Positions 2,810 to 14,234 of a stretch of 64,000 bases of DNA are shown one piece after another. The stretch lies in NCBI GenBank assembly GCA_043801745.1, contig JAZDLR010000016.1, positions 1,535 to 65,534 on the forward strand, in the 5' to 3' direction. Positions within the stretch are counted from its first letter, which is position 1. Each line of letters begins with the position of its first letter. The position numbers and the translations under genes were made by a program. The DNA comes from Candidatus Komeilibacteria bacterium (lineage in GTDB: Bacteria > Patescibacteriota > Patescibacteriia > UBA1558 > 2-01-FULL-52-15). The notes under the pieces are model-generated. The model worked only from the letters and a program-made list of their open reading frames with translations. It did not search any database and was not told the origin of the DNA.

Positions 2810-2901
2810 ATAGCAACCACAATCTGTCCAGCTTGACTTCCGATTTTAGCTCTGGTAAAACACCCCAATCTAGTAAGCTCCCTCACCTCAGGAGGCAACG
2901 C

Positions 2902-3159
2902 ATGGATAATAAGCATCAAGCTGATCCGCATTGCCTTATCTGCGGCGGTAATGGTCACTACCAGCCAACACCGGAGAGCCCGGAAGTTCCTTGTGAAGAG
3001 TGTGATGATTCCATTTTTTTTGATTTCATCAATGACCCATCCCTGCCGGAAAACTATCGTCAGGAAGTTGCCGCTCTACTTGCCCAGATAAGGCAACAGC
3101 GAAAAGAACGGTGGGAAAGAGCTCAACAGCAGTCCCAAATCAACCCCTCGCCGAGTTAA
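2902..3159 (+). CDS. small zinc-ribbon-like protein (hypothetical)
   Basis: GGAGG at 2891-2895 six nt before ATG 2902 (internal to track ORF 2833..3159); CLICGG...CEEC Cys pairs. Confidence 0.4.
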   Translation: MDNKHQADPHCLICGGNGHYQPTPESPEVPCEECDDSIFFDFINDPSLPENYRQEVAALLAQIRQQRKERWERAQQQSQINPSPS

Positions 3160-4772: not shown

Positions 4773-5348
4773 TTGGCCATAATTACCGTACAATATAGCC
4801 ATATGAAAAGCCGCTACTATCCTTTCTTAGACGTAGTCTTAGACGTTTTTTATAGCATTATTCTCTATAATGTTTTTATTGCCTTTCCGGGATTACGCCT
4901 GGAATCATTATTAATGGTCTTTGCCTGTTTAATAATGTTGAATTATTGGTGGGATGCCCGATCAGACACATTATTCCCCAAACATTATCTTTTTGATTTT
5001 TATGCTGTCAGCGTCATCATGTTTATTTTCTCCCAATGGCCAACGCATTTTCTTAATCTTCACTATTTCTTATTGATAACCTCCACCTTTTTCTTCGCTG
5101 ATGGAATCTACGCTTTTATTGCTATCTACGCCCATAAAGAAACTGTCGACGAGACAGCTTTAAAATTGGATGTTGCTGTTGAGCTTTTTTTGGGAGCAAT
5201 CTATTTGCTTTTTGCTCAGATTATTACCGCCCTCACGGTCAGCACTATTATTGTTATATATGTCCCTTATCTAATCTGGTTCTGGACCAATATTAAAAGG
5301 GGCTATTTTAAACCGAAATTTTTAAATTCCGGTAATCAACCTTATTAA
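4773..5348 (+). CDS. polytopic membrane protein (hypothetical)
   Basis: Approx. 6 hydrophobic helices, no recognisable motif. Confidence 0.4.
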   Translation: MAIITVQYSHMKSRYYPFLDVVLDVFYSIILYNVFIAFPGLRLESLLMVFACLIMLNYWWDARSDTLFPKHYLFDFYAVSVIMFIFSQWPTHFLNLHYFLLITSTFFFADGIYAFIAIYAHKETVDETALKLDVAVELFLGAIYLLFAQIITALTVSTIIVIYVPYLIWFWTNIKRGYFKPKFLNSGNQPY

Positions 5349-5359
5349 CTAAAAAATAT

Positions 5360-5821
5360 ATGAAAAAAAGCTGGATAATTCTGACTCTTATTTTGGCGGT
5401 CGGCACATTATTTGCCTGGTACACAGTTTATAATGATTTCTCCCTATTTTATAATTTAGAGGGTACGGTGCTGAAAATCAATAACTGTGCCATTCCTAAT
5501 CCAGTAACCACTCCTTGCTTTTACGGCGCCTTTGCTTTTCTGATAGCTTTTATCTGGTCAATTATGCTACTGCGAAAACCGCTGCAATTGGCGCTTCAGG
5601 GCTTAAAAAAACTGCTCTGGCTGCTGGTCGCCAGCGTCCTGTTTGCCTGGGGTAACTTTGTTTACTCCTTGATAACCTTTTACCAAACCAAAGACAGCGG
5701 CCAAGCCATCGGCTGTTCCGGACAATTAGTCACTAACCCCTGGACTACACCCTGTTTTATCGGGGCCTGCATCTTCTTGACAGCCCTAGTGGTTGCTGTG
5801 ATACTCTACCGGCGGAAATAG
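5360..5821 (+). CDS. membrane protein with internal two-fold repeat (hypothetical)
   Basis: Repeated segments NPVTTPCFYGAFAFL and NPWTTPCFIGACIFL, each followed by a TM helix. Confidence 0.45.
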   Translation: MKKSWIILTLILAVGTLFAWYTVYNDFSLFYNLEGTVLKINNCAIPNPVTTPCFYGAFAFLIAFIWSIMLLRKPLQLALQGLKKLLWLLVASVLFAWGNFVYSLITFYQTKDSGQAIGCSGQLVTNPWTTPCFIGACIFLTALVVAVILYRRK

Positions 5822-5874
5822 AGATCGTTGTTTTGAACCTATAGTTCAGTAAGAGGATCCGCGACAACTTAGAT

Positions 5875-5948
5875 GGGCCCGTAGTAAAGTGGTATTACAC
5901 GGCATTCGCATTGCTGAGGCGGGAGTTCGATTCTCCCCGGGTCCACCA
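5875..5948 (+). tRNA. tRNA-Ala (anticodon CGC)
   Basis: Hand-folded cloverleaf: acceptor GGGCCCG/CGGGTCC with G3:U70, D-stem GTAA/TTAC, anticodon stem CGGCA/TGCTG with loop TTCGCAT, T-arm GGGAG-TTCGATT-CTCCC, encoded CCA. Confidence 0.75.
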
Positions 5949-5951
5949 TGT

Positions 5952-6020
5952 GGGTCCATCTGAGTTGTCAGGACATTCGCATTGCTGAGGTAAGGAGTTC
6001 GAGTCTCCTCGGGTCCACCA
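5952..6020 (+). pseudogene. degenerate tRNA-Ala-like copy (tRNA fragment/pseudo-tRNA)
   Basis: Shares anticodon region cattcgcattgctgagg and T-arm/3' end ggagttcgagtctcctcgggtccacca with the adjacent tRNA-Ala, but D and anticodon stems do not pair. Confidence 0.4.
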
Positions 6021-6088
6021 ATGGTTCGGGCAGTTCCCCGCCTCCATAAAATCAAATAGAGCGGGTCCGCCTTTGGCGGAGATTCTGC

Positions 6089-6137
6089 TCGCCTCGCTGA
6101 GCGAGAGCGAAGCGGGCCTAGGTCCACCATTTCAGAT
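6089..6137. repeat. 49-bp direct repeat, copy 1 (tcgcctcgctgagcgagagcgaagcgggcctaggtccaccatttcagat)
   Basis: Identical to 8503-8551; ends in tRNA 3'-end-like GGTCCACCA. Confidence 0.9.
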
Positions 6138-6184
6138 TTGCCGAAGCCTTGGGAACAACTGTTGAAAATTTATTCAAATAATTT

Positions 6185-8413
6185 ATGAATAATAATCTTG
6201 AACAACCAAACATTGAGAATCGGCCACCAGTTGAGGCAAAAAAGGAAATTCCGCAGTCGGTTAAAACCATAAAAAAACTTGCCGCGAAATACCCAGAAAT
6301 GGGCTGGCTCACCGGCGATATTGATGCTACGCCAGAGACGAGTATCTCGGATCAAACCGAGGGCACTATTGGTAAGTATATTTTCCCAAATCTTGACAAA
6401 AAAGATTTGATTGAGTTCGACAGAACCGCAGTCGGGATACTAACTCTCCAGTGGGCGGCAAATGGAGATTATGAAAGTTTTACTGCTTGCCAAAAGGGGC
6501 CGACAAAATTAACGCCGGAGGATTTTACAAAACTTCAAGAATATACAAAATCGATTTTACAAAACCCGGAAGATTTTGAGGCAATGGAAACTTTTATGGT
6601 CATCAACGACCTCGGTAAAATTAAGAGTGTTGTAGAAAATATCGCAGAGAAATCAGGAGTTAGAGATGTTGATCACGATAGAATGCTTCTTGTTGGGTTG
6701 GAGCAACACCCTGATATTTCACCGAGCTTTCAAAAATTATCGCCCCGCCACAAAGAGTTAATACTCAATGGCCTAAAGACAAAATTCAACATTGGACAAT
6801 TTATCCAAGGCGAAAATGTACCCGCGAGCCTTGAGGGGCTAAAAGGTATAGATGAGGAAAGCTTGAAATTCTATCTCTTGCATGCACTTTATGATATCGC
6901 TGGAGCGGCAGGTCACTCTGTACAAAATGGATCAATGGTAATGAACGAGCCAACATACGAAAATTTCCGCTTGGCAATCGACTCACTCGAAAAATTGGGT
7001 GAGGGGCAAACTACTGACGAAGCGTATGACGCGTATCTTGCCCAGAAAGCGGAAAAATTTGGTTTCGATATATCAGTTCAGGCGGATCGAGCCACTACAC
7101 GAATCTGTTGTATGCTTAGAACTTCTAAAGTGGGGGAAGCGCAGGAGGTTTTGCGGGTGTTTTCAGAACTGCCGCAAAATACTCGCGCGATACTCGAGAA
7201 TGACCTGAACATGCGAGGAACTAATGACGGTATCGCAACGCTGATTTACTATGCTCCTGCATTTCTTGCAAATCTTCAAAAAAAATTTAGTGAGAGCGGG
7301 GACCCAAATTCTTCTAAAAAAGCACTCGCGCTTGGTTTGGGTACTTTTGCCAGAGTATTTCAAGAGGCGCACATCGCAAATAAAGGAAGGGTAGGGAACG
7401 GTGTATATACTGTTATGGCGTCTCCACTTGCGAAAGTAGCTGCTGAAAACCCCGCTAAATTATTGACACAGGATATAAATCTAAAAACTATTGGTAATGA
7501 TGCGGAAATTGAGCTCACTGATGTTCCAGTAGTTGATAAGGATAAATTTCAAAAAATTGAAAGCTTGACAGAAATTCCCGGTAAGAAAATAGTTGTGGTG
7601 GGAATTGGCGGCGGGTCGGATTGCGTACAAGCAGCATTGCTTGCAGAGTTACTTAAAAAATCAGAAAAAGAATGTCCTTGTGTTATTTCAGTTCGGACAG
7701 AAAAAACAGGATCACAGGGTGCGGGCGGAAAAGTTGGAGAGAAAAGAACAGTAGAAAATCATGGCGGGGAAATTAAAAAGGGTGTTTATCTGATTACGCC
7801 AAAAACTACGGGGTCTGGTAGATTTTTGGAAAATATACCAACGAGTGATATCCCTGTATATTTAATTATCGAACAAGATGGCATTGGCTTGTCGGAACAA
7901 ATAAATTCTGTGTTAGAACAGGTCGGCGGCGTAGATACAGTTGTTGCAGTTGATACTGGTGGTGATGCTTTGTACTCTACAACTGGTCACGATGAAACAA
8001 AAGCAACGCCAGATCAGGATTTGCGAAGCCTTCAAGCGATCAGCAATCTTTCTGGAGTACAAAAAATAAGCTGTGAAATTGCTGTCGGGATAGACACACC
8101 GCCGAATGGTGAGAGTGTATTACTTGACGCAGAGGCAAAACACTACGAGCCAACGCCAGAGGAAGCGACCATGATTTTAGAAAAATATCGGGAGTGGCAA
8201 ATGGACGGTTCAAATGAAGCACGTTTTGGTAAGACACCTCTTGCTTGGCAAGAAGCACTACAAAACCATTTTGGTTTTCAAGAAATAAATTTGCCTAAAA
8301 GAGTAGTACTTGATAAAAAGAATCCGTGGAAACCCTTTGTGCATGTGCAACCAAGCACAAAAGGGATGTTCTTTATGGATGTTGAAAAACATTTGAAAAG
8401 TATTGGTAAGTGA
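6185..8413 (+). CDS. hypothetical 742-aa protein (orphan; C-terminal GIGGGSD ... DTGGD nucleotide-binding-like domain)
   Basis: Long ORF with different codon flavour (A/purine-rich) than neighbours; located exactly between the 49-bp direct repeats. Confidence 0.55.
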   Translation: MNNNLEQPNIENRPPVEAKKEIPQSVKTIKKLAAKYPEMGWLTGDIDATPETSISDQTEGTIGKYIFPNLDKKDLIEFDRTAVGILTLQWAANGDYESFTACQKGPTKLTPEDFTKLQEYTKSILQNPEDFEAMETFMVINDLGKIKSVVENIAEKSGVRDVDHDRMLLVGLEQHPDISPSFQKLSPRHKELILNGLKTKFNIGQFIQGENVPASLEGLKGIDEESLKFYLLHALYDIAGAAGHSVQNGSMVMNEPTYENFRLAIDSLEKLGEGQTTDEAYDAYLAQKAEKFGFDISVQADRATTRICCMLRTSKVGEAQEVLRVFSELPQNTRAILENDLNMRGTNDGIATLIYYAPAFLANLQKKFSESGDPNSSKKALALGLGTFARVFQEAHIANKGRVGNGVYTVMASPLAKVAAENPAKLLTQDINLKTIGNDAEIELTDVPVVDKDKFQKIESLTEIPGKKIVVVGIGGGSDCVQAALLAELLKKSEKECPCVISVRTEKTGSQGAGGKVGEKRTVENHGGEIKKGVYLITPKTTGSGRFLENIPTSDIPVYLIIEQDGIGLSEQINSVLEQVGGVDTVVAVDTGGDALYSTTGHDETKATPDQDLRSLQAISNLSGVQKISCEIAVGIDTPPNGESVLLDAEAKHYEPTPEEATMILEKYREWQMDGSNEARFGKTPLAWQEALQNHFGFQEINLPKRVVLDKKNPWKPFVHVQPSTKGMFFMDVEKHLKSIGK

Positions 8414-8502
8414 TGCCGCTGACGAAAAAACAGTCCGTCCGAGCGAGGACATGGCGAAAGGGGCGCGGGGAGAATTCCGCCATGCCCGAACGGATGAAAT
8501 TG

Positions 8503-8551
8503 TCGCCTCGCTGAGCGAGAGCGAAGCGGGCCTAGGTCCACCATTTCAGAT
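8503..8551. repeat. 49-bp direct repeat, copy 2
   Basis: Perfect copy of 6089-6137. Confidence 0.9.
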
Positions 8552-8581
8552 ATAAAATAATAGCTTTGACTATATAATATT

Positions 8582-10273
8582 GTGTCTGCGCTATCCCTAG
8601 AAACGATTCAGATTATTGCCTGGTCAAAAGTACTGTTATTTTTGGCCGTTATTGTTGCCTTGTTAATTGTCCGCTTTAAAAATAAACCCTGGGCCTGGAG
8701 CTTATTTGCCAGTATCACTGTCACTGCCAGCTACTTAATTATTTCCTGGCCGCTACAGAAAATGTGGTGGGGTAATAATGGCGATGAAATTTTCATTATC
8801 AGTTTCTTTACCCAGGCCCTAAAGTCTAATCCCTTTCAAGACTACTACTACCTAGGGTTACCGGCTTTCTATCCGCCGCTATATTTTCAAGTCATTGGTC
8901 TGGTTTCTCGGCTCTGGGCAGCTAATGCTATTAGCGCGGCCAAATTTGGAACGGCTCTCACTTTTTTCCTGTGGTTTAGCGGAACCTATCTGGGATTACG
9001 TCTGTGCCGGGGCAAACAATCAGAAAAAAGTTCCAGTGAAACTCTGACTCCTTGGCTCTGGTTCACAATACCATTGCTTTTTTTCTTTCTGGTTGATTTC
9101 AACGACTTGATACTTAAGCCCTACGAAACTTTTCCGGCCTTGCTGTCGGTTTTTTGGTTGGGTTTATTATGGCTATCACTTAATAAAAACCGCTGGTCAA
9201 TTAAGGAATATTTATTTTTTGGTATTTCTGGAGGCATCCTATTCTTAACCTACTATTTTTGGTGGTTGATATTAGTACCAGCACTAATAGGTCTGGCGTT
9301 AACTCATTCTCAACGTCTTATTAAATTCCTGCGAATAATTATAGTCGGCTTTATTACCTTTATTATCTCCGGTATATATCTTGTCCCCCTATTTTTGTCT
9401 TACAAATCCGGCATGGAAAATTGGCAAGCTCTTTTCTTTGTTCCGCAAGATTTTTCTACCTTTCTGCCCTTCGTCAACCTGTCTATCAAAACTCCTCTGC
9501 TAATTGCCGGTTTACTCGGCCTTATTATTTATTGCCGCCGGCCCTTTGTCCGAGCCAATTTGGCCATTTTAATTACCTGTTATTTATATCAAATAGTCAG
9601 CTTAGTATTATTTCTGGCCGGCGGCCATCCGTTTCAAGCCGCCAAACCCTTCCTTTTCCTGGGAACAGCCACTCTGACAGTTGGCTGCGCTTATTCACTT
9701 AGCGGACTCTGGAACCACTACGTTACTCCTTTAACCAGCGGCCGCCGGCAAATAATAAGCTTGGCACTAATCGTACTATCACTACCATTTTGGCCCATGA
9801 CTACCTTCATAGATGACGTAGTTGTCAGAAATCAGATTGAAAAGGACTTGAAGGCGCCATCGGCCTATTATTTGGCCAGCCATATTCAGCAAGCTGTTCC
9901 TGATTATCAAAATAAAATCTGGCTCAGTAGTGGTATCCCGGAAATTAACGCCTATTTACCGCTGCATTATTTTATTGCGCACAATCCTCACTTCAGTCAC
10001 CCGGCAGCCAAATACTCTGAGCGGGAGAAAGTTCTTAAAGAGTTAGTCTCGGCGACTGCAGCCAACTTTACGGCACTGGTCCGCGCGTCCGGGATCAACG
10101 CTTTATTACTTTATAAAACCGCCAATAGCGATTCTTATCCTTTATTCCTCTGGGCCGATAACTATCCTAATGGCGGCCTAGAGCGAGAATTACAAATTTC
10201 CAAAGTTCTGATTGATAGTCTGCACTGGAGAACTGTATACGAAGACAGCGAATGGCAAGTCATTATTCCCTAA
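8582..10273 (+). CDS. GT-C-type polytopic membrane protein (putative membrane glycosyltransferase, PMT/ArnT/YfhO-like)
   Basis: >10 TM helices followed by a soluble C-terminal domain; GTG start 3 nt after a TATAAT box (possibly leaderless). Confidence 0.45.
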   Translation: MSALSLETIQIIAWSKVLLFLAVIVALLIVRFKNKPWAWSLFASITVTASYLIISWPLQKMWWGNNGDEIFIISFFTQALKSNPFQDYYYLGLPAFYPPLYFQVIGLVSRLWAANAISAAKFGTALTFFLWFSGTYLGLRLCRGKQSEKSSSETLTPWLWFTIPLLFFFLVDFNDLILKPYETFPALLSVFWLGLLWLSLNKNRWSIKEYLFFGISGGILFLTYYFWWLILVPALIGLALTHSQRLIKFLRIIIVGFITFIISGIYLVPLFLSYKSGMENWQALFFVPQDFSTFLPFVNLSIKTPLLIAGLLGLIIYCRRPFVRANLAILITCYLYQIVSLVLFLAGGHPFQAAKPFLFLGTATLTVGCAYSLSGLWNHYVTPLTSGRRQIISLALIVLSLPFWPMTTFIDDVVVRNQIEKDLKAPSAYYLASHIQQAVPDYQNKIWLSSGIPEINAYLPLHYFIAHNPHFSHPAAKYSEREKVLKELVSATAANFTALVRASGINALLLYKTANSDSYPLFLWADNYPNGGLERELQISKVLIDSLHWRTVYEDSEWQVIIP

Positions 10274-11817
10274 TCATTGCTAAAATTCGGAAATTTTGTT
10301 GGGACAACCGATTTTTTTTAATTTTGGTTGTTTTTCTGGTTGTTATGACCGCTGCCACCTATTCACATTATCTCTACAATTGGGATGCCGGACAATTTGC
10401 TCTTGGCGCCAAACGCTTTTCTTTATCAGAACATCAACCACATCCACCCGGGTATTGGTTGTTTACTGAAACTATTAAATCTTTTAATCTTTTTTTAAGC
10501 GACGGCAACCTATCAATGATTCTGATCAATCTAGTGGCTAGTATGGCCGCGATTTTCTTCTTTTACCGGACAACCATGATGCTGACCGGCAAGCGTCTAC
10601 TGGCTTTTTGGTTAACCCTACTGTTACTAACCAACCAGGTTTTTTGGTTTTACCGTTCTGTTGCCAGCACCTACCTAATAGAAATATTAACTGTTTGCTT
10701 TTTACTCTATACATCAATCCGAATGCAAAAAGGTAGCCGCTCATTACTGCCATACAGCTGTCTGGCCGTGGCGCTTCTGGCCGGTTTTAGGCCTTCAGTT
10801 ATTTTGATCGCCGCCCCGTTATTACTCTACCAATTAATTTTGTCTCCACATAAAGTCTCCGCCATAATAAAAAGCTTGACCGGAGTGCTACTGGGATTAG
10901 CTCTTTGGCTACCCGCCTTAGCTGCCGCGGCCGGTGGCTATCAAGCCTTATATCACTTTATTATTGGTCAATTTATTATAGCCGAAACCTCGACAAGAGC
11001 GATTATTATCAGCCATGACATTTTTTTAGTGGCAACTATCCTGTACACAACCTTTGTACCTCTGATAATAGGCCTGCTGTTTTATAAAAAAATCTACAAC
11101 AGTATTCGCTCCTTCCATCTCTGGTTTATTGTAGCGACACTGGTCTGGCAAATTAGTATCTATCTGATACTACACTTTGATGAAGTTGGTTATATTCTCG
11201 GCCTCATACCTTTATCCTATATTCTTATTTTGCCAGCCTTAGAACATCTAGCTAGCAAGCGTAATCAACTGGTAATTTCCTGCCTAGTGATCTCGGGTCT
11301 GCAGTTAATACTATTTTTTACCGGCATTCCTCTGACCATTCAACCAAAAGTTCAAGCCCTAAACTACCAGGATATCAGCCGTCATGACCAACGGATACAA
11401 AGTCAACTAGCCTTTATTTCCAAATATGACCCGGCAACGACCTTAGTTATTATTACCCGCGGTCAATATCTAACTGCCGACAATGTGATAGCCTCCTACC
11501 CTTATAATGACATACGGCTAATGAGCTATTATTTGCCACAATACAAAATCTATGACCTACTAGGTGTTAAAAATAAATTTTATGTGGCGTCCAATTATAC
11601 CTACAGCGAAATTAACAATGAGACAGTGACCACTATGGCGCCGGCAATCAAACAAATTATTATTGTGGCTGACTATATTCATCCTACCTATCTGCCGCTT
11701 AATTTACAGTGGCGCAGTCTCTATCCGTCATTTAATATTAAAAATGTGTATTTCGCCGACTTAGGAGACCAAACAAACTTCATCTATAGCGGGCAAATCT
11801 TTAGTAAGAATCCCTGA
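10252..11817 (+). CDS. GT-C-type polytopic membrane protein (putative glycosyltransferase)
   Basis: Multi-TM N-terminal region plus C-terminal soluble domain; overlaps upstream gene by 22 nt. Confidence 0.45.
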   Translation: MASHYSLIIAKIRKFCWDNRFFLILVVFLVVMTAATYSHYLYNWDAGQFALGAKRFSLSEHQPHPPGYWLFTETIKSFNLFLSDGNLSMILINLVASMAAIFFFYRTTMMLTGKRLLAFWLTLLLLTNQVFWFYRSVASTYLIEILTVCFLLYTSIRMQKGSRSLLPYSCLAVALLAGFRPSVILIAAPLLLYQLILSPHKVSAIIKSLTGVLLGLALWLPALAAAAGGYQALYHFIIGQFIIAETSTRAIIISHDIFLVATILYTTFVPLIIGLLFYKKIYNSIRSFHLWFIVATLVWQISIYLILHFDEVGYILGLIPLSYILILPALEHLASKRNQLVISCLVISGLQLILFFTGIPLTIQPKVQALNYQDISRHDQRIQSQLAFISKYDPATTLVIITRGQYLTADNVIASYPYNDIRLMSYYLPQYKIYDLLGVKNKFYVASNYTYSEINNETVTTMAPAIKQIIIVADYIHPTYLPLNLQWRSLYPSFNIKNVYFADLGDQTNFIYSGQIFSKNP

Positions 11818-11890
11818 TGGTTATATTGCTTTTTCTCAGCTTTCATACTAGTATGCTCTTGCCTTAGTTCTATTTTTATCTTCTGATTAG

Positions 11891-11966
11891 CGGGGATTAG
11901 CGCAGTTGGTAGCGCGCACGATTCGGGTTCGTGAGGTCACCGGTTCGAATCCGGTATCCCCGACCA
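11891..11966 (+). tRNA. tRNA-Pro (anticodon CGG)
   Basis: Cloverleaf: acceptor CGGGGAT/ATCCCCG, D-stem GCGC/GCGC, anticodon stem CACGA/TCGTG with loop TTCGGGT (G37), T-arm ACCGG-TTCGAAT-CCGGT, encoded CCA. Confidence 0.85.
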
Positions 11967-11996
11967 TCAGCAGATAAAACACTTTATCCTGGATAG

Positions 11997-14234
11997 ATGA
12001 ATAAGTTTAAATTTGTCAGCAATACATATTTTGCAACAGGAATCGTATTAGTAGTTTTATTACTAATTTTTTTTTATCAGCCACTAGTAAATAAACGGAC
12101 GCTGGTCCCCTTAGATATTTTGCCGGAATTTGATCTGGCACTAAAAAACACCAGCCTCAGTCACAATTATTTACTTAGTGATCTGGTAGATCAATTTTAT
12201 CCTAACTACACTCTCCTCCGCCAAAGTTTAAGCAACGGCGAATTTCCTTTATGGAATCCGCATATTTTAACCGGCCTTCCTTTCATGGCTGATAGTCAAA
12301 CAGGAATTTTCGAATTCACCCATATACTATCGTATGCTGCCTCAATCTCACCACTGGCCTTTCCTTTATTTTCGGCCCTCATACTCCTCTTACTATTAGG
12401 ACTGTCTTTTTTTGTTTACCTGAAAAATTTGCGCTTTGATACTCTAGTGTCGTTGTTTGGGGCTGTAGTGCTGATGTTTTCCGGTACCACAATTGTTTGG
12501 TTAAACTATCCTCTGCTGGCAGCTTTTGTTTGGCTACCCTTACTGCTTTACTGTGTTGATAAAATAATTTTGGCCCACGAATACCGTTTTCTGCCGCTGC
12601 TGTCTGTGGTAATTTGCCTCTCATTGCTGGCTGGTTATCCGCAGATCGCTTTAATTAATTTACTGGTGACTGGGCTTTATTTCCTAATTAGGTGGTTACG
12701 GCATGGCTGCTTAAAATGGAATACGTTGACGCTGACAATTCTATTCGTGATCTTGGGTATTACTCTAAGCGCAGTTCAAACAGGACCGTCGTGGGACTTT
12801 ATTAGCGAAAGCCAATCCTATGAGGTGGGACGAGGTTTTTTTGCCCAAGATAATGTACTGGAGGTTGCCCAGAAACAAGTTACCAACCTAGGATCCAGTC
12901 TTAACGACGGCGTGCAGAGAATGGCCCGTTACGGAATCTTAGCTTTTGATCCTAACTACTATGGCTCGCCGCTGACCAGGAATTATAGATTTCCTGAAGA
13001 CAACCCTTATGCCAATTATAGCGAGCTGACAATTTATCCGGGTTTACTCACAATTATATTGGCGCTGCTGGCCATCATTTGGTCAAGAAAATGTAAGGCC
13101 ATAATTTTTTGGCTTGCTACAGCCGTTGTCACCTTTGGTTTAGCGGCCGATTTGCCTCTGCTAAACTTGTTAAAATATTTACCACTCATTAATAAAATTT
13201 CCTTGGGCCGCTTTAGGCCATTATTGGTTTTCGCTGTAGTACTCCTGGCAACTTATTCACTACAAAAAATAATCAATACTTGGAAAAATACTAAGCTGAA
13301 AACAATTGTGGTGATTTGTTTGATAGTAATAAGTTTCGGAGATCTGTTTTATTTCTTCCACACTTACAATTTAGGCACTAAAGCTGAGGCTGGTTTCATC
13401 ACTCAAAACCCAGTCGTTAAGTTTTTACAGGACAATACTACTTATGAGAGAATTGTTGGTTTGGGCCCGGTAAATCAGGGTTTCCGTACGCCCATCTTGC
13501 CCAACACCGGTATTCTTACCGGACTATATGATGTCCGGGGCTATAACCCGATAGTGGGCAAAAATTATATCACTTTTAGCGGCACTTATTTAACTCAGCG
13601 CGGATCTTTTATTCTAGCCGATGCGGTCTTTGATGACCAAGCAATTGACTTAATGAGTGTTAAATATCTTGTTTGTCCCGCTACCAGCTGTTTATTCGTC
13701 AACCAAACAGAAAAATGGGAGCAGGAATATGCCGATGCCAATGTTAAAATCATCAAAAATCCCGACTTCCTACCGCGCGCCTATATTGCCTATGATTATC
13801 TGGACGGACAAAATGAACAATTGATCAAATTATTTGAATCCAATACCCTGGACATTAATTCCCAAGTGTTGGTTGCTAATTCTATTGCCGCTACCGATTT
13901 GCAGAAACAGCCCGGTAGCCCAATCAAGCCAGCCGAGATTATTAAATATTCCAATAACAAGGTCATAATCAAAAGCCAAAGCGACCAAAGTGGGATACTG
14001 GTACTAACTGATAATTATGACGCCGATTGGCAGGTCACAGTCAATGGTCAGAAACAAAAAGTGCTCCAGGTAAATGGAATCTTTCGCGGTGTAATCGTGC
14101 CCGCCGGCACCAGTGAGATCGTTTTTACTTATTGGCCTAAGAATTTTGATCTCTATATCGCGCTGTCGGCCACCAGTCTATTAATACTTATTGCTTCGGG
14201 TATTATTATTAACAAAAAGTCAATCGGCATATGA
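11997..14234 (+). CDS. YfhO-like GT-C membrane protein (putative membrane glycosyltransferase)
   Basis: 745 aa with about 12 TM helices, a large extracytoplasmic domain and a C-terminal TM anchor. Confidence 0.5.
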   Translation: MNKFKFVSNTYFATGIVLVVLLLIFFYQPLVNKRTLVPLDILPEFDLALKNTSLSHNYLLSDLVDQFYPNYTLLRQSLSNGEFPLWNPHILTGLPFMADSQTGIFEFTHILSYAASISPLAFPLFSALILLLLLGLSFFVYLKNLRFDTLVSLFGAVVLMFSGTTIVWLNYPLLAAFVWLPLLLYCVDKIILAHEYRFLPLLSVVICLSLLAGYPQIALINLLVTGLYFLIRWLRHGCLKWNTLTLTILFVILGITLSAVQTGPSWDFISESQSYEVGRGFFAQDNVLEVAQKQVTNLGSSLNDGVQRMARYGILAFDPNYYGSPLTRNYRFPEDNPYANYSELTIYPGLLTIILALLAIIWSRKCKAIIFWLATAVVTFGLAADLPLLNLLKYLPLINKISLGRFRPLLVFAVVLLATYSLQKIINTWKNTKLKTIVVICLIVISFGDLFYFFHTYNLGTKAEAGFITQNPVVKFLQDNTTYERIVGLGPVNQGFRTPILPNTGILTGLYDVRGYNPIVGKNYITFSGTYLTQRGSFILADAVFDDQAIDLMSVKYLVCPATSCLFVNQTEKWEQEYADANVKIIKNPDFLPRAYIAYDYLDGQNEQLIKLFESNTLDINSQVLVANSIAATDLQKQPGSPIKPAEIIKYSNNKVIIKSQSDQSGILVLTDNYDADWQVTVNGQKQKVLQVNGIFRGVIVPAGTSEIVFTYWPKNFDLYIALSATSLLILIASGIIINKKSIGI

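Follow-up and report, generated by a model that had tools for sequence, protein, structure and literature searches.

What kind of protein is encoded by a gene that lies alone between two perfect direct repeats beside a tRNA gene, and how did the gene come to be there? The question is raised by a stretch of 64,000 nucleotides from Candidatus Komeilibacteria bacterium (Patescibacteriota; assembly GCA_043801745.1, contig JAZDLR010000016.1, positions 1,535 to 65,534 of the forward strand), referred to below as the window and numbered from its first nucleotide. The gene encodes a protein of 742 aa, which an earlier inspection of the letters (the sequence-only reading) had described as an orphan with a nucleotide-binding-like C-terminal module and possibly a selfish, defence or host-interaction role. 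Here we report that it belongs to a widespread, wholly uncharacterised family in which an all-helical domain with an HD-like site is combined with an aspartate-rich Rossmann-type domain, and that the gene is an accessory, horizontally mobile unit.

A widespread family of two uncharacterised domains

The open reading frame (ORF) and its two halves, each named after a Pfam domain of unknown function (DUF), are located as follows; the models were made with AlphaFold2 (AF2), and pLDDT is their confidence score.

6185..8413 (stop codon included), + strand: ORF of 742 aa, ATG to stop, DUF6829 half fused to DUF1152-like half
6392..7378, + strand: DUF6829 domain, residues 70-398, all-helical (AF2 model of residues 1-452, pLDDT 94)
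7475..8410, + strand: C-terminal DUF1152-like Rossmann-type domain, residues 431-742 (AF2 pLDDT 93.6)
7595..8056, + strand: Pfam DUF1152 match, residues 471-624

The ORF lies where the sequence-only reading had placed it, and the peptides quoted there are present (GIGGGSD at residues 473-479, DTGGD at 590-594 and WQMDGSNEARFGKTP at 671-685), although the first two are 117 residues apart and not about 90. The description as an orphan without recognisable homologue was wrong. A Pfam scan matched DUF6829 (PF20717) to residues 70-398 with 240.3 bits against a gathering cut-off of 27 (E=4e-71), a span of 329 residues corresponding to profile positions 39-377 of 408. With the whole protein as query, DUF1152 (PF06626) was matched at residues 471-624 with 32.1 bits against a cut-off of 27 (E=9e-8), rising to 34.8 bits for the C-half alone; this match is limited to the first half of the model (profile positions 2-157 of 295). 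At least 120 homologue clusters were retrieved by a word-indexed search, and an exhaustive hidden Markov model search of 1.84 billion representatives returned 1,840 matches at E<=1e-3, 668 of them at E<=1e-30. The protein itself is 100% identical to P0001, which NCBI lists as a 'DUF1152 domain-containing protein' of a Candidatus Komeilibacteria metagenome-assembled genome (MAG). Since the exact sequence and both DUF families were already catalogued, the finding is not a new sequence.

Neither DUF nor its accession is mentioned in any paper found in our literature search on DUF1152 and DUF6829, in line with the earlier suggestion of a previously undescribed function. Similarly, no characterised or housekeeping homologue turned up, and synteny is absent. 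Weak Pfam matches pooled over 65 family members pointed to no consistent third family, the NCBIfam scan gave nothing beyond a spurious cyanophycinase match (E=0.016), and the PDB, searched by sequence and by profile, yielded no match to the full protein, to the profile of either half or to three extended homologues.

Conserved residues of the helical N-terminal domain

The AF2 model of residues 1-452, based on the family alignment, reached a pLDDT of 94.0, with residues 1-16 of low confidence. Together with the structure comparison it bears out the earlier description of the N-terminal ~430 aa as helical and of no known type. Conserved motifs are distributed over the domain.

6413..6424, + strand: EFDR motif, with E77 and R80 invariant in the 94-sequence family alignment
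6605..6619, + strand: NDLGK motif (N141, D142, K145), proposed first metal-ligand position of the HD-like site
6671..6679, + strand: DHD motif (D163, H164, D165) at the start of helix 164-174; it would correspond to the 'HD' doublet
6812..6814, + strand: E210 (in QGEN), the best-conserved N-domain residue (277 of 279 domains)
6881..6895, + strand: HALYD motif (H233...D237), proposed distal His and Asp ligands of the HD-like site

Among the 94 aligned N-domains, the invariant or nearly invariant residues are E77, R80, N141, D142, K145, D163, H164, D165, Q205, Q208, E210, H233, D237, Y355, Y356 and N363. A wider set of 279 domains has Asn at position 141 in 206 of them and His in 41; D142, K145, H164, D165, E210, H233 and D237 are constant there. 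Enzymes of the HD superfamily hold their metal with an H...HD...D set of ligands. The DUF6829 residues follow a pattern of [H/N]D, 22 residues, HD, ~70 residues and H...D, in which the HD doublet starts a helix, and by analogy they would match that metal site in order, spacing and helix positions. H164-D165 and D237 are kept, the first position is mostly Asn, and H233 is an extra conserved His. In its all-helical fold and in this [H/N]-D ... H-D ... H ... D pattern, with its 22- and ~70-residue spacing, the domain resembles HD phosphohydrolases such as the GppA/PPX C-terminal domain, phosphodiesterases, SAMHD1 and YfbR-type nucleotidases. Several HD proteins occur among the structural matches of the N-domain model, and no significant sequence-profile or structural similarity of the N-domain to known HD domains was found.

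An aspartate-rich Rossmann-type C-terminal domain

Two glycine-rich loops mark the C-terminal half.

7601..7621, + strand: GIGGGSD loop, residues 473-479, directly after strand 38-43 of the C-domain model
7952..7966, + strand: DTGGD loop, residues 590-594, invariant, at the end of strand 155-161 of the C-domain model

The C-terminal ~300 aa had been judged Rossmann-like, and the AF2 model is indeed of alpha/beta type with both loops directly after strands, GGGSD following the first core strand and DTGGD the fourth. The same two loops, singled out by the sequence-only reading, are the best-conserved motifs of the domain and recur (as GIGGGSD and VDTGGDAL) in a bona fide stand-alone DUF1152 protein of Ca. 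Uabimicrobium, with which the C-half aligns at an hhalign probability of 97.9. Invariant residues of the C-domain comprise G475-G477, S478, D479, Q482, R521, D590, T591, G593, D594, D612, G635, D637, P639, Y668, T684 and N713; R504, R546, E549, K683 and W715 are nearly so, and all of these are retained in stand-alone C-domain proteins. Relative to DUF1152 the C-half has ~100 extra conserved C-terminal residues (including Y668, W671, GKT 682-684 and NPW 713-715). Because it also matches only half of the model, we regard it as a distinct DUF1152 subfamily, one that is always linked to DUF6829.

Five fixed Asp residues, with Arg and Lys, stand beside the glycine-rich loops. Judged from sequence, this set suggests a site for a divalent metal and a phosphate (or ribose), and a catalytic rather than a purely binding role. 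After the second strand the domain reads S-V-R, an Arg that could suit a phosphate. Of the earlier label 'nucleotide-binding', the Rossmann-type fold and its conserved glycine loops stand, and the binding itself is plausible as a prediction. In structural matches of the C-domain, LmbE-type hydrolases outscored CARF proteins; universal stress proteins and GT-B glycosyltransferases were also among the matches reported for the AF2 models. Separately, P0102, P0094 and a few proteins consisting of the C-domain only carry Trp at the family's invariant Gly (WGGSD, DTWGD, QWEN), suggesting that their genomes use genetic code 25 and that UGA codons for Gly were translated as Trp.

Fusions, neighbours and partner domains

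The analysis retrieved 336 family proteins, whose architectures were counted. Fusions of the two halves (N-C) were the most frequent (157), followed by N-only (94) and C-only (57) proteins; tandem forms were N-N-C (8), N-N (4) and N-N-N (16). Genes for N-only and C-only proteins are often adjacent and overlapping, for example in the pair L009/L010 (17-nt overlap) and in the Rickettsiales loci L021 and L035. On the evidence of the fusions and of the adjacent or overlapping genes, the DUF6829 and DUF1152-like halves are functionally linked. The sole other bacterial partner of DUF6829 seen was an N-terminal atypical Cys-phosphatase, of the dual-specificity or protein tyrosine phosphatase (DSP/PTP) kind, in Gastranaerophilales-type genomes. 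This phosphatase is matched best by the Pfam models PTP-NADK, Tc-R-P and DSPc, and its relatives in the PDB are DUF442, TpbA and PTP-like phytase. No DUF1152-like gene was found within 6 kb of the PTP-DUF6829 genes, and a phosphatase in place of the DUF1152-like half points to phosphoester chemistry. A literature search on PTP-NADK, PTP-SAK and DSP-PTPase in this connection found no papers.

The N-N-N class includes giants of 1.5-4.5 kaa (P0257, P0267, P0279, P0286, P0299 and P0301) in which three DUF6829 domains stand alongside a TCAD9 kinase-like domain, a NACHT NTPase and ankyrin repeats. Dinoflagellates (Prorocentrum cordatum / Polarella glacialis) are the source of P0299, and a EukProt transcriptome is that of P0257. 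TCAD9 has been listed among protein-kinase-like families (bioRxiv 10.64898/2026.09.18.752743) and described as associated with vWA-MoxR-VMAP conflict systems (PMC10910872). In several giants, one or two DUF6829 copies keep the full residue set, with His at position 141, and their sisters have lost it. The giants thus share with the 742-aa protein the same DUF6829 domain, in some copies with a complete catalytic-type residue set. They differ in having three of them in tandem and no DUF1152-like domain, whereas the 742-aa protein lacks kinase, NACHT and ankyrin parts.

Two further arrangements were observed. In Woesebacteria (L007, 7354-7356), a single in-frame TGA separates the halves, as a nonsense mutation, a sequencing error or a site of read-through. 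In Bdellovibrionota, a second, divergent DUF6829 paralogue (24-29% identity) adjoins the fusion gene (L019, 5590-6618; L020, 5307-6350).

A repeat-bounded insert next to a tRNA gene

The elements around the gene are listed below.

6089..6137, no strand assigned: left copy of a 49-nt perfect direct repeat, ending in GGTCCACCA
8503..8551, no strand assigned: right copy of the 49-nt perfect direct repeat
5875..5948, + strand: tRNA-Ala(CGC) with encoded CCA, first of a run of CCA-ending repeats before the gene
5949..6020, + strand: degenerate partial copy of the 3' two-thirds of tRNA-Ala (89% identity over 47 nt)
8436..8490, + strand: imperfect GC-rich hairpin downstream of the stop codon

The 49-nt repeat occurs in exactly two copies in the window, far beyond chance. 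The ~2.4 kb between them hold the 742-aa ORF alone, with a 47-nt leader and an 89-nt trailer containing the imperfect hairpin, which agrees with the earlier view of the gene as sole cargo of a repeat-bounded insert. The partial tRNA copy at 5949-6020 comprises an anticodon arm, a T arm and a CCA end but no 5' acceptor strand to match, and resembles an att-type remnant that has been displaced. The left repeat can be aligned to tRNA-Ala over its 3' half, from the anticodon arm to CCA, with 23 invariant columns. Overall, the tRNA side of the insert has the appearance of a tRNA-linked insertion hotspot with successive att-type remnants. No integrase or recombinase gene lies inside the insert, its GC content (0.40-0.47) is no different from that of its surroundings, and 31-mer and 23-mer repeat probes for an empty site matched nothing in Joint Genome Institute (JGI) metagenomes or IMG/VR. 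No integron attC R''/R' core motifs were seen by eye in the downstream hairpin, and the downstream flank folds no better than shuffled sequences (z = -1.15).

A Rfam scan of 5000-9500 returned tRNA-Ala only, with tmRNA-like matches far under threshold, and ARAGORN found no tmRNA. The spacer at 6021-6140, left repeat included, has a better fold than any of 200 shuffles (z = -2.8), with its ends pairing as AUGGU...ACCAU; it matches no Rfam family.

Homologues in other genomes occupy other places. Proteins 72-87% identical are encoded in unrelated contexts, next to ribosomal protein S20 and RuvA (L001) or RbfA and IF-2 (L011); in L012, recombinase fragments are nearby and the homologue follows a helix-turn-helix (XRE-HTH) gene. 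The two closest homologues, L011 and L012, are homologous to the window at the DNA level (81-83% identity) from 4-5 nt before the start codon to 25 nt (L011) or ~80 nt (L012) past the stop codon; the flank at 8426-8495 is also found beside the L012 homologue (~78% identical). No neighbour in the window is common to any homologue locus. At L012, a 242-nt 100% inverted repeat (1-242 / 2831-3072) encloses the XRE-HTH gene and the homologue (85% identical); since one of its arms coincides with the contig end, the arrangement may be a real flanked cassette or an assembly artefact.

For a neighbourhood survey of ~32 independent loci, 434 flanking ORFs were clustered by blastp and 110 immediate neighbours were scanned against Pfam. 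No neighbour family was present in more than 2 loci and no defence partner recurred; integrase, resolvase, Fic and toxin-antitoxin genes were occasional neighbours. In these loci, defence genes are not the routine neighbours about which the sequence-only reading had asked. A scan of GTDB species representatives, made with a 6-sequence alignment, found the gene in Patescibacteria, six Bdellovibrionota, Omnitrophota and about a dozen uncultured gut Alphaproteobacteria and Rickettsiales, with single carriers in Acidimicrobiales, Baltobacteraceae, Planctomycetales, Gammaproteobacteria and a 'Micrarchaeota' bin. The last of these (L016, GTDB 'Candidatus Micrarchaeota') is 100% identical over 16.9 kb to an ENA contig (L005), and its archaeal label may reflect binning.

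A possible function and its rivals

Starting from family membership, the folds, the invariant residues, the pattern of fusion, adjacency and phosphatase swap, and the repeats with absent synteny, we infer metal sites, a chemistry, a substrate class and a mode of insertion. Our preferred explanation, to which we give a probability of about 0.4, is that this accessory, horizontally mobile gene encodes an enzyme with two catalytic domains, a metal-dependent hydrolase of HD-like type and an Asp-rich Rossmann-type domain, both directed at one small phosphorylated, probably nucleotide-derived substrate. The protein would be cytoplasmic and self-contained. In its N-domain the polar set [N/H]141-D142-x-x-K145, D163-H164-D165, E210, H233...D237 and E77/R80 would make up the HD-like metal site. 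In its C-domain D479, D590 and D594 of the loops, together with D612 and D637 and with R504, R521, R546 and K683, may form a pocket for a divalent metal and a phosphate. Both halves would act on the same small molecule, most likely a nucleotide, dinucleotide or sugar-phosphate, the C-terminal half binding or hydrolysing one phosphoester or glycosidic element and the HD-like half hydrolysing another. The gene probably arrived by site-specific or homology-driven insertion at the tRNA-linked hotspot.

Could the protein instead be a sensor and effector in one, serving immunity or abortive infection? Its Rossmann-type C-domain would then be a sensor in the manner of CARF or SLOG domains, responding to a nucleotide-derived signal, and the HD-like N-domain would degrade nucleic acids or nucleotides. 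The CARF-like similarity of the C-domain, the eukaryotic association of DUF6829 with NACHT and TCAD9, and the mobility of the gene are all in keeping with such a conflict module, but we consider it unlikely. PADLOC-DB 2.0 has no match for the 742-aa protein, and a weak match to Csx3 (E=0.011) concerned one stand-alone member only. The single PHROGs match (E=0.09) is not significant, and no relatives were found in IMG/VR, INPHARED phages or PLSDB plasmids. There is no defence-island signal among the surveyed loci, nor was a CRISPR or cyclase association seen. Moreover, five invariant Asp and several invariant Arg/Lys are more typical of catalysis than of pure sensing, and CARF is outscored by LmbE-type hydrolases. 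Compared with the CARF proteins Csx1, Csm6, Can2 and Csa3, the C-domain is much larger and has many invariant acidic residues, and the 742-aa protein is without HEPN, nuclease or HTH partner; membership of CARF in a CRISPR/cyclic oligoadenylate (cOA)-signalling context was rejected. Of the selfish, defence or host-interaction role proposed from the sequence, the mobile single-cargo gene survives, and support for the defence or host-interaction part is circumstantial, these databases and neighbourhoods having yielded no significant match for the protein and no recurrent defence partner.

An ordinary salvage enzyme for nucleotides, NAD(P) or sugar-phosphates, retained by reduced-genome symbionts and predators that rely on host precursors, would explain the occurrence in Patescibacteria, Bdellovibrionota, Rickettsiales and gut Alphaproteobacteria, and Omnitrophota, with the single other carriers. 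It would also suit the G-x-G-G-G-S loop after the first core strand with its conserved Arg after the second, as well as the swapped-in phosphatase, whose best Pfam model is the type fused to NAD kinase. Two neighbourhoods lean the same way. In Gracilibacteria (L003, 5832-13235) the homologue lies between nicotinamidase and NAPRTase genes on one side and phosphoribosyl pyrophosphate (PRPP) synthetase / phosphoribosyltransferase genes on the other, and in Ca. Uabimicrobium (L041, 7998-9720) the stand-alone 258-aa DUF1152 gene is convergent with an inosine-uridine nucleoside hydrolase homologue. However, neither neighbourhood was seen more than once, and families of this kind do not recur among the 110 flanking genes. 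Absent synteny even among homologues 72-87% identical, a patchy and non-vertical distribution, paralogues in one genome and tandem DUF6829 duplicates also fit poorly, which makes plain salvage quite unlikely in our view. Secretion of the protein as an effector into a host or prey is very unlikely: the enrichment in episymbiotic, predatory and intracellular lineages and the presence of DUF6829 in dinoflagellate proteins would favour it, yet the N-terminus, as read from the sequence, is hydrophilic and has neither a signal peptide nor a transmembrane segment, secretion-system genes were not among the neighbours in the window or the surveyed loci, and the family extends to Acidimicrobiales, Baltobacteraceae and Planctomycetales MAGs.

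The structural matches and the adjoining GT-C glycosyltransferase genes raise the thought of an LmbE/PIG-L-type deacetylase or hydratase acting on a GlcNAc glycoconjugate, which we hold to be highly improbable. LmbE/PIG-L proteins such as MshB, Dbv21, diacetylchitobiose deacetylase and GalB have Zn-binding His motifs (HxDD after the first core strand, HxxH); the C-domain has aspartate- and glycine-rich loops in their stead, and identity to the structural matches is just 6-14%. Membership was rejected on the lack of an invariant His and on the GGGSD loop after the first core strand. The glycosyltransferase neighbours are conserved in no other locus, and the repeat boundaries separate the gene from them. 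Finally, GIGGGSD and DTGGD superficially recall the loops of tubulin/FtsZ-like GTPases (T1, GGGGxN; T4, GGGTGTG) and of classical dinucleotide-dependent Rossmann dehydrogenases (G-x-G-x-x-G). Neither identity deserves serious weight, as the T4 signature GGGTG[ST]G and the tubulin-type GTPase fold are missing, a tubulin/FtsZ-like protein is effectively refuted by the structural matches, and the C-domain matched no dehydrogenase family in Pfam or among the structural matches.

Relation to known systems and significance

Several features appear undescribed in the literature searched: the HD-like constellation of DUF6829 with its N/H alternation, the Rossmannoid, Asp-rich DUF1152-like half and its obligatory link to DUF6829, the swap for a PTP, the reuse of DUF6829 in dinoflagellate NACHT giants, and the cassette-like mobility. 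The family is a solid and testable lead on two uncharacterised folds, the function of which is predicted here from sequences and models. If the two-domain enzyme that we prefer is real, it would represent a new branch of metal-dependent phosphohydrolase-type enzymes, both domains of which lack solved or characterised relatives. The concrete set of catalytic residues would be at hand, and identification of the substrate would annotate two Pfam DUFs together. With it, a metabolite or signal that matters to symbiotic or predatory lifestyles might come to light as well. The ~1,800 representatives are concentrated in hard-to-culture lineages (Patescibacteria, Bdellovibrionota, Rickettsiales-like gut Alphaproteobacteria and Omnitrophota). 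The triplicate reuse of DUF6829 would tie a bacterial mobile gene to a eukaryotic immune-receptor-like architecture. Should the protein be a plain salvage phosphatase instead, the gain in annotation would be modest.

A bolder and rather doubtful idea is that DUF6829, with a DUF1152-like or PTP partner, is the catalytic core of an unrecognised nucleotide-directed conflict or signalling module spanning ultra-small episymbionts of the candidate phyla radiation (CPR), the predatory Bdellovibrionota, intracellular Alphaproteobacteria and dinoflagellate giants resembling nucleotide-binding leucine-rich repeat (NLR) proteins. Two folds without solved relatives would then make or destroy a nucleotide-derived signal, for instance one derived from NAD(P) or ADP-ribose, and in bacteria the single-gene form would travel as a cassette flanked by repeats.

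Genes flanking the insert

Upstream of the 742-aa gene are genes for an RRM protein, a cupin and small membrane proteins, and tRNA-Ala; downstream are three GT-C-like membrane proteins and tRNA-Pro. The latter three, consecutive large polytopic proteins encoded at 8582-14234, flank tRNA-Pro(CGG) and comprise an AftA_N-like protein, one without Pfam match and a YfhO-like protein; the first two ORFs overlap by 22 nt.

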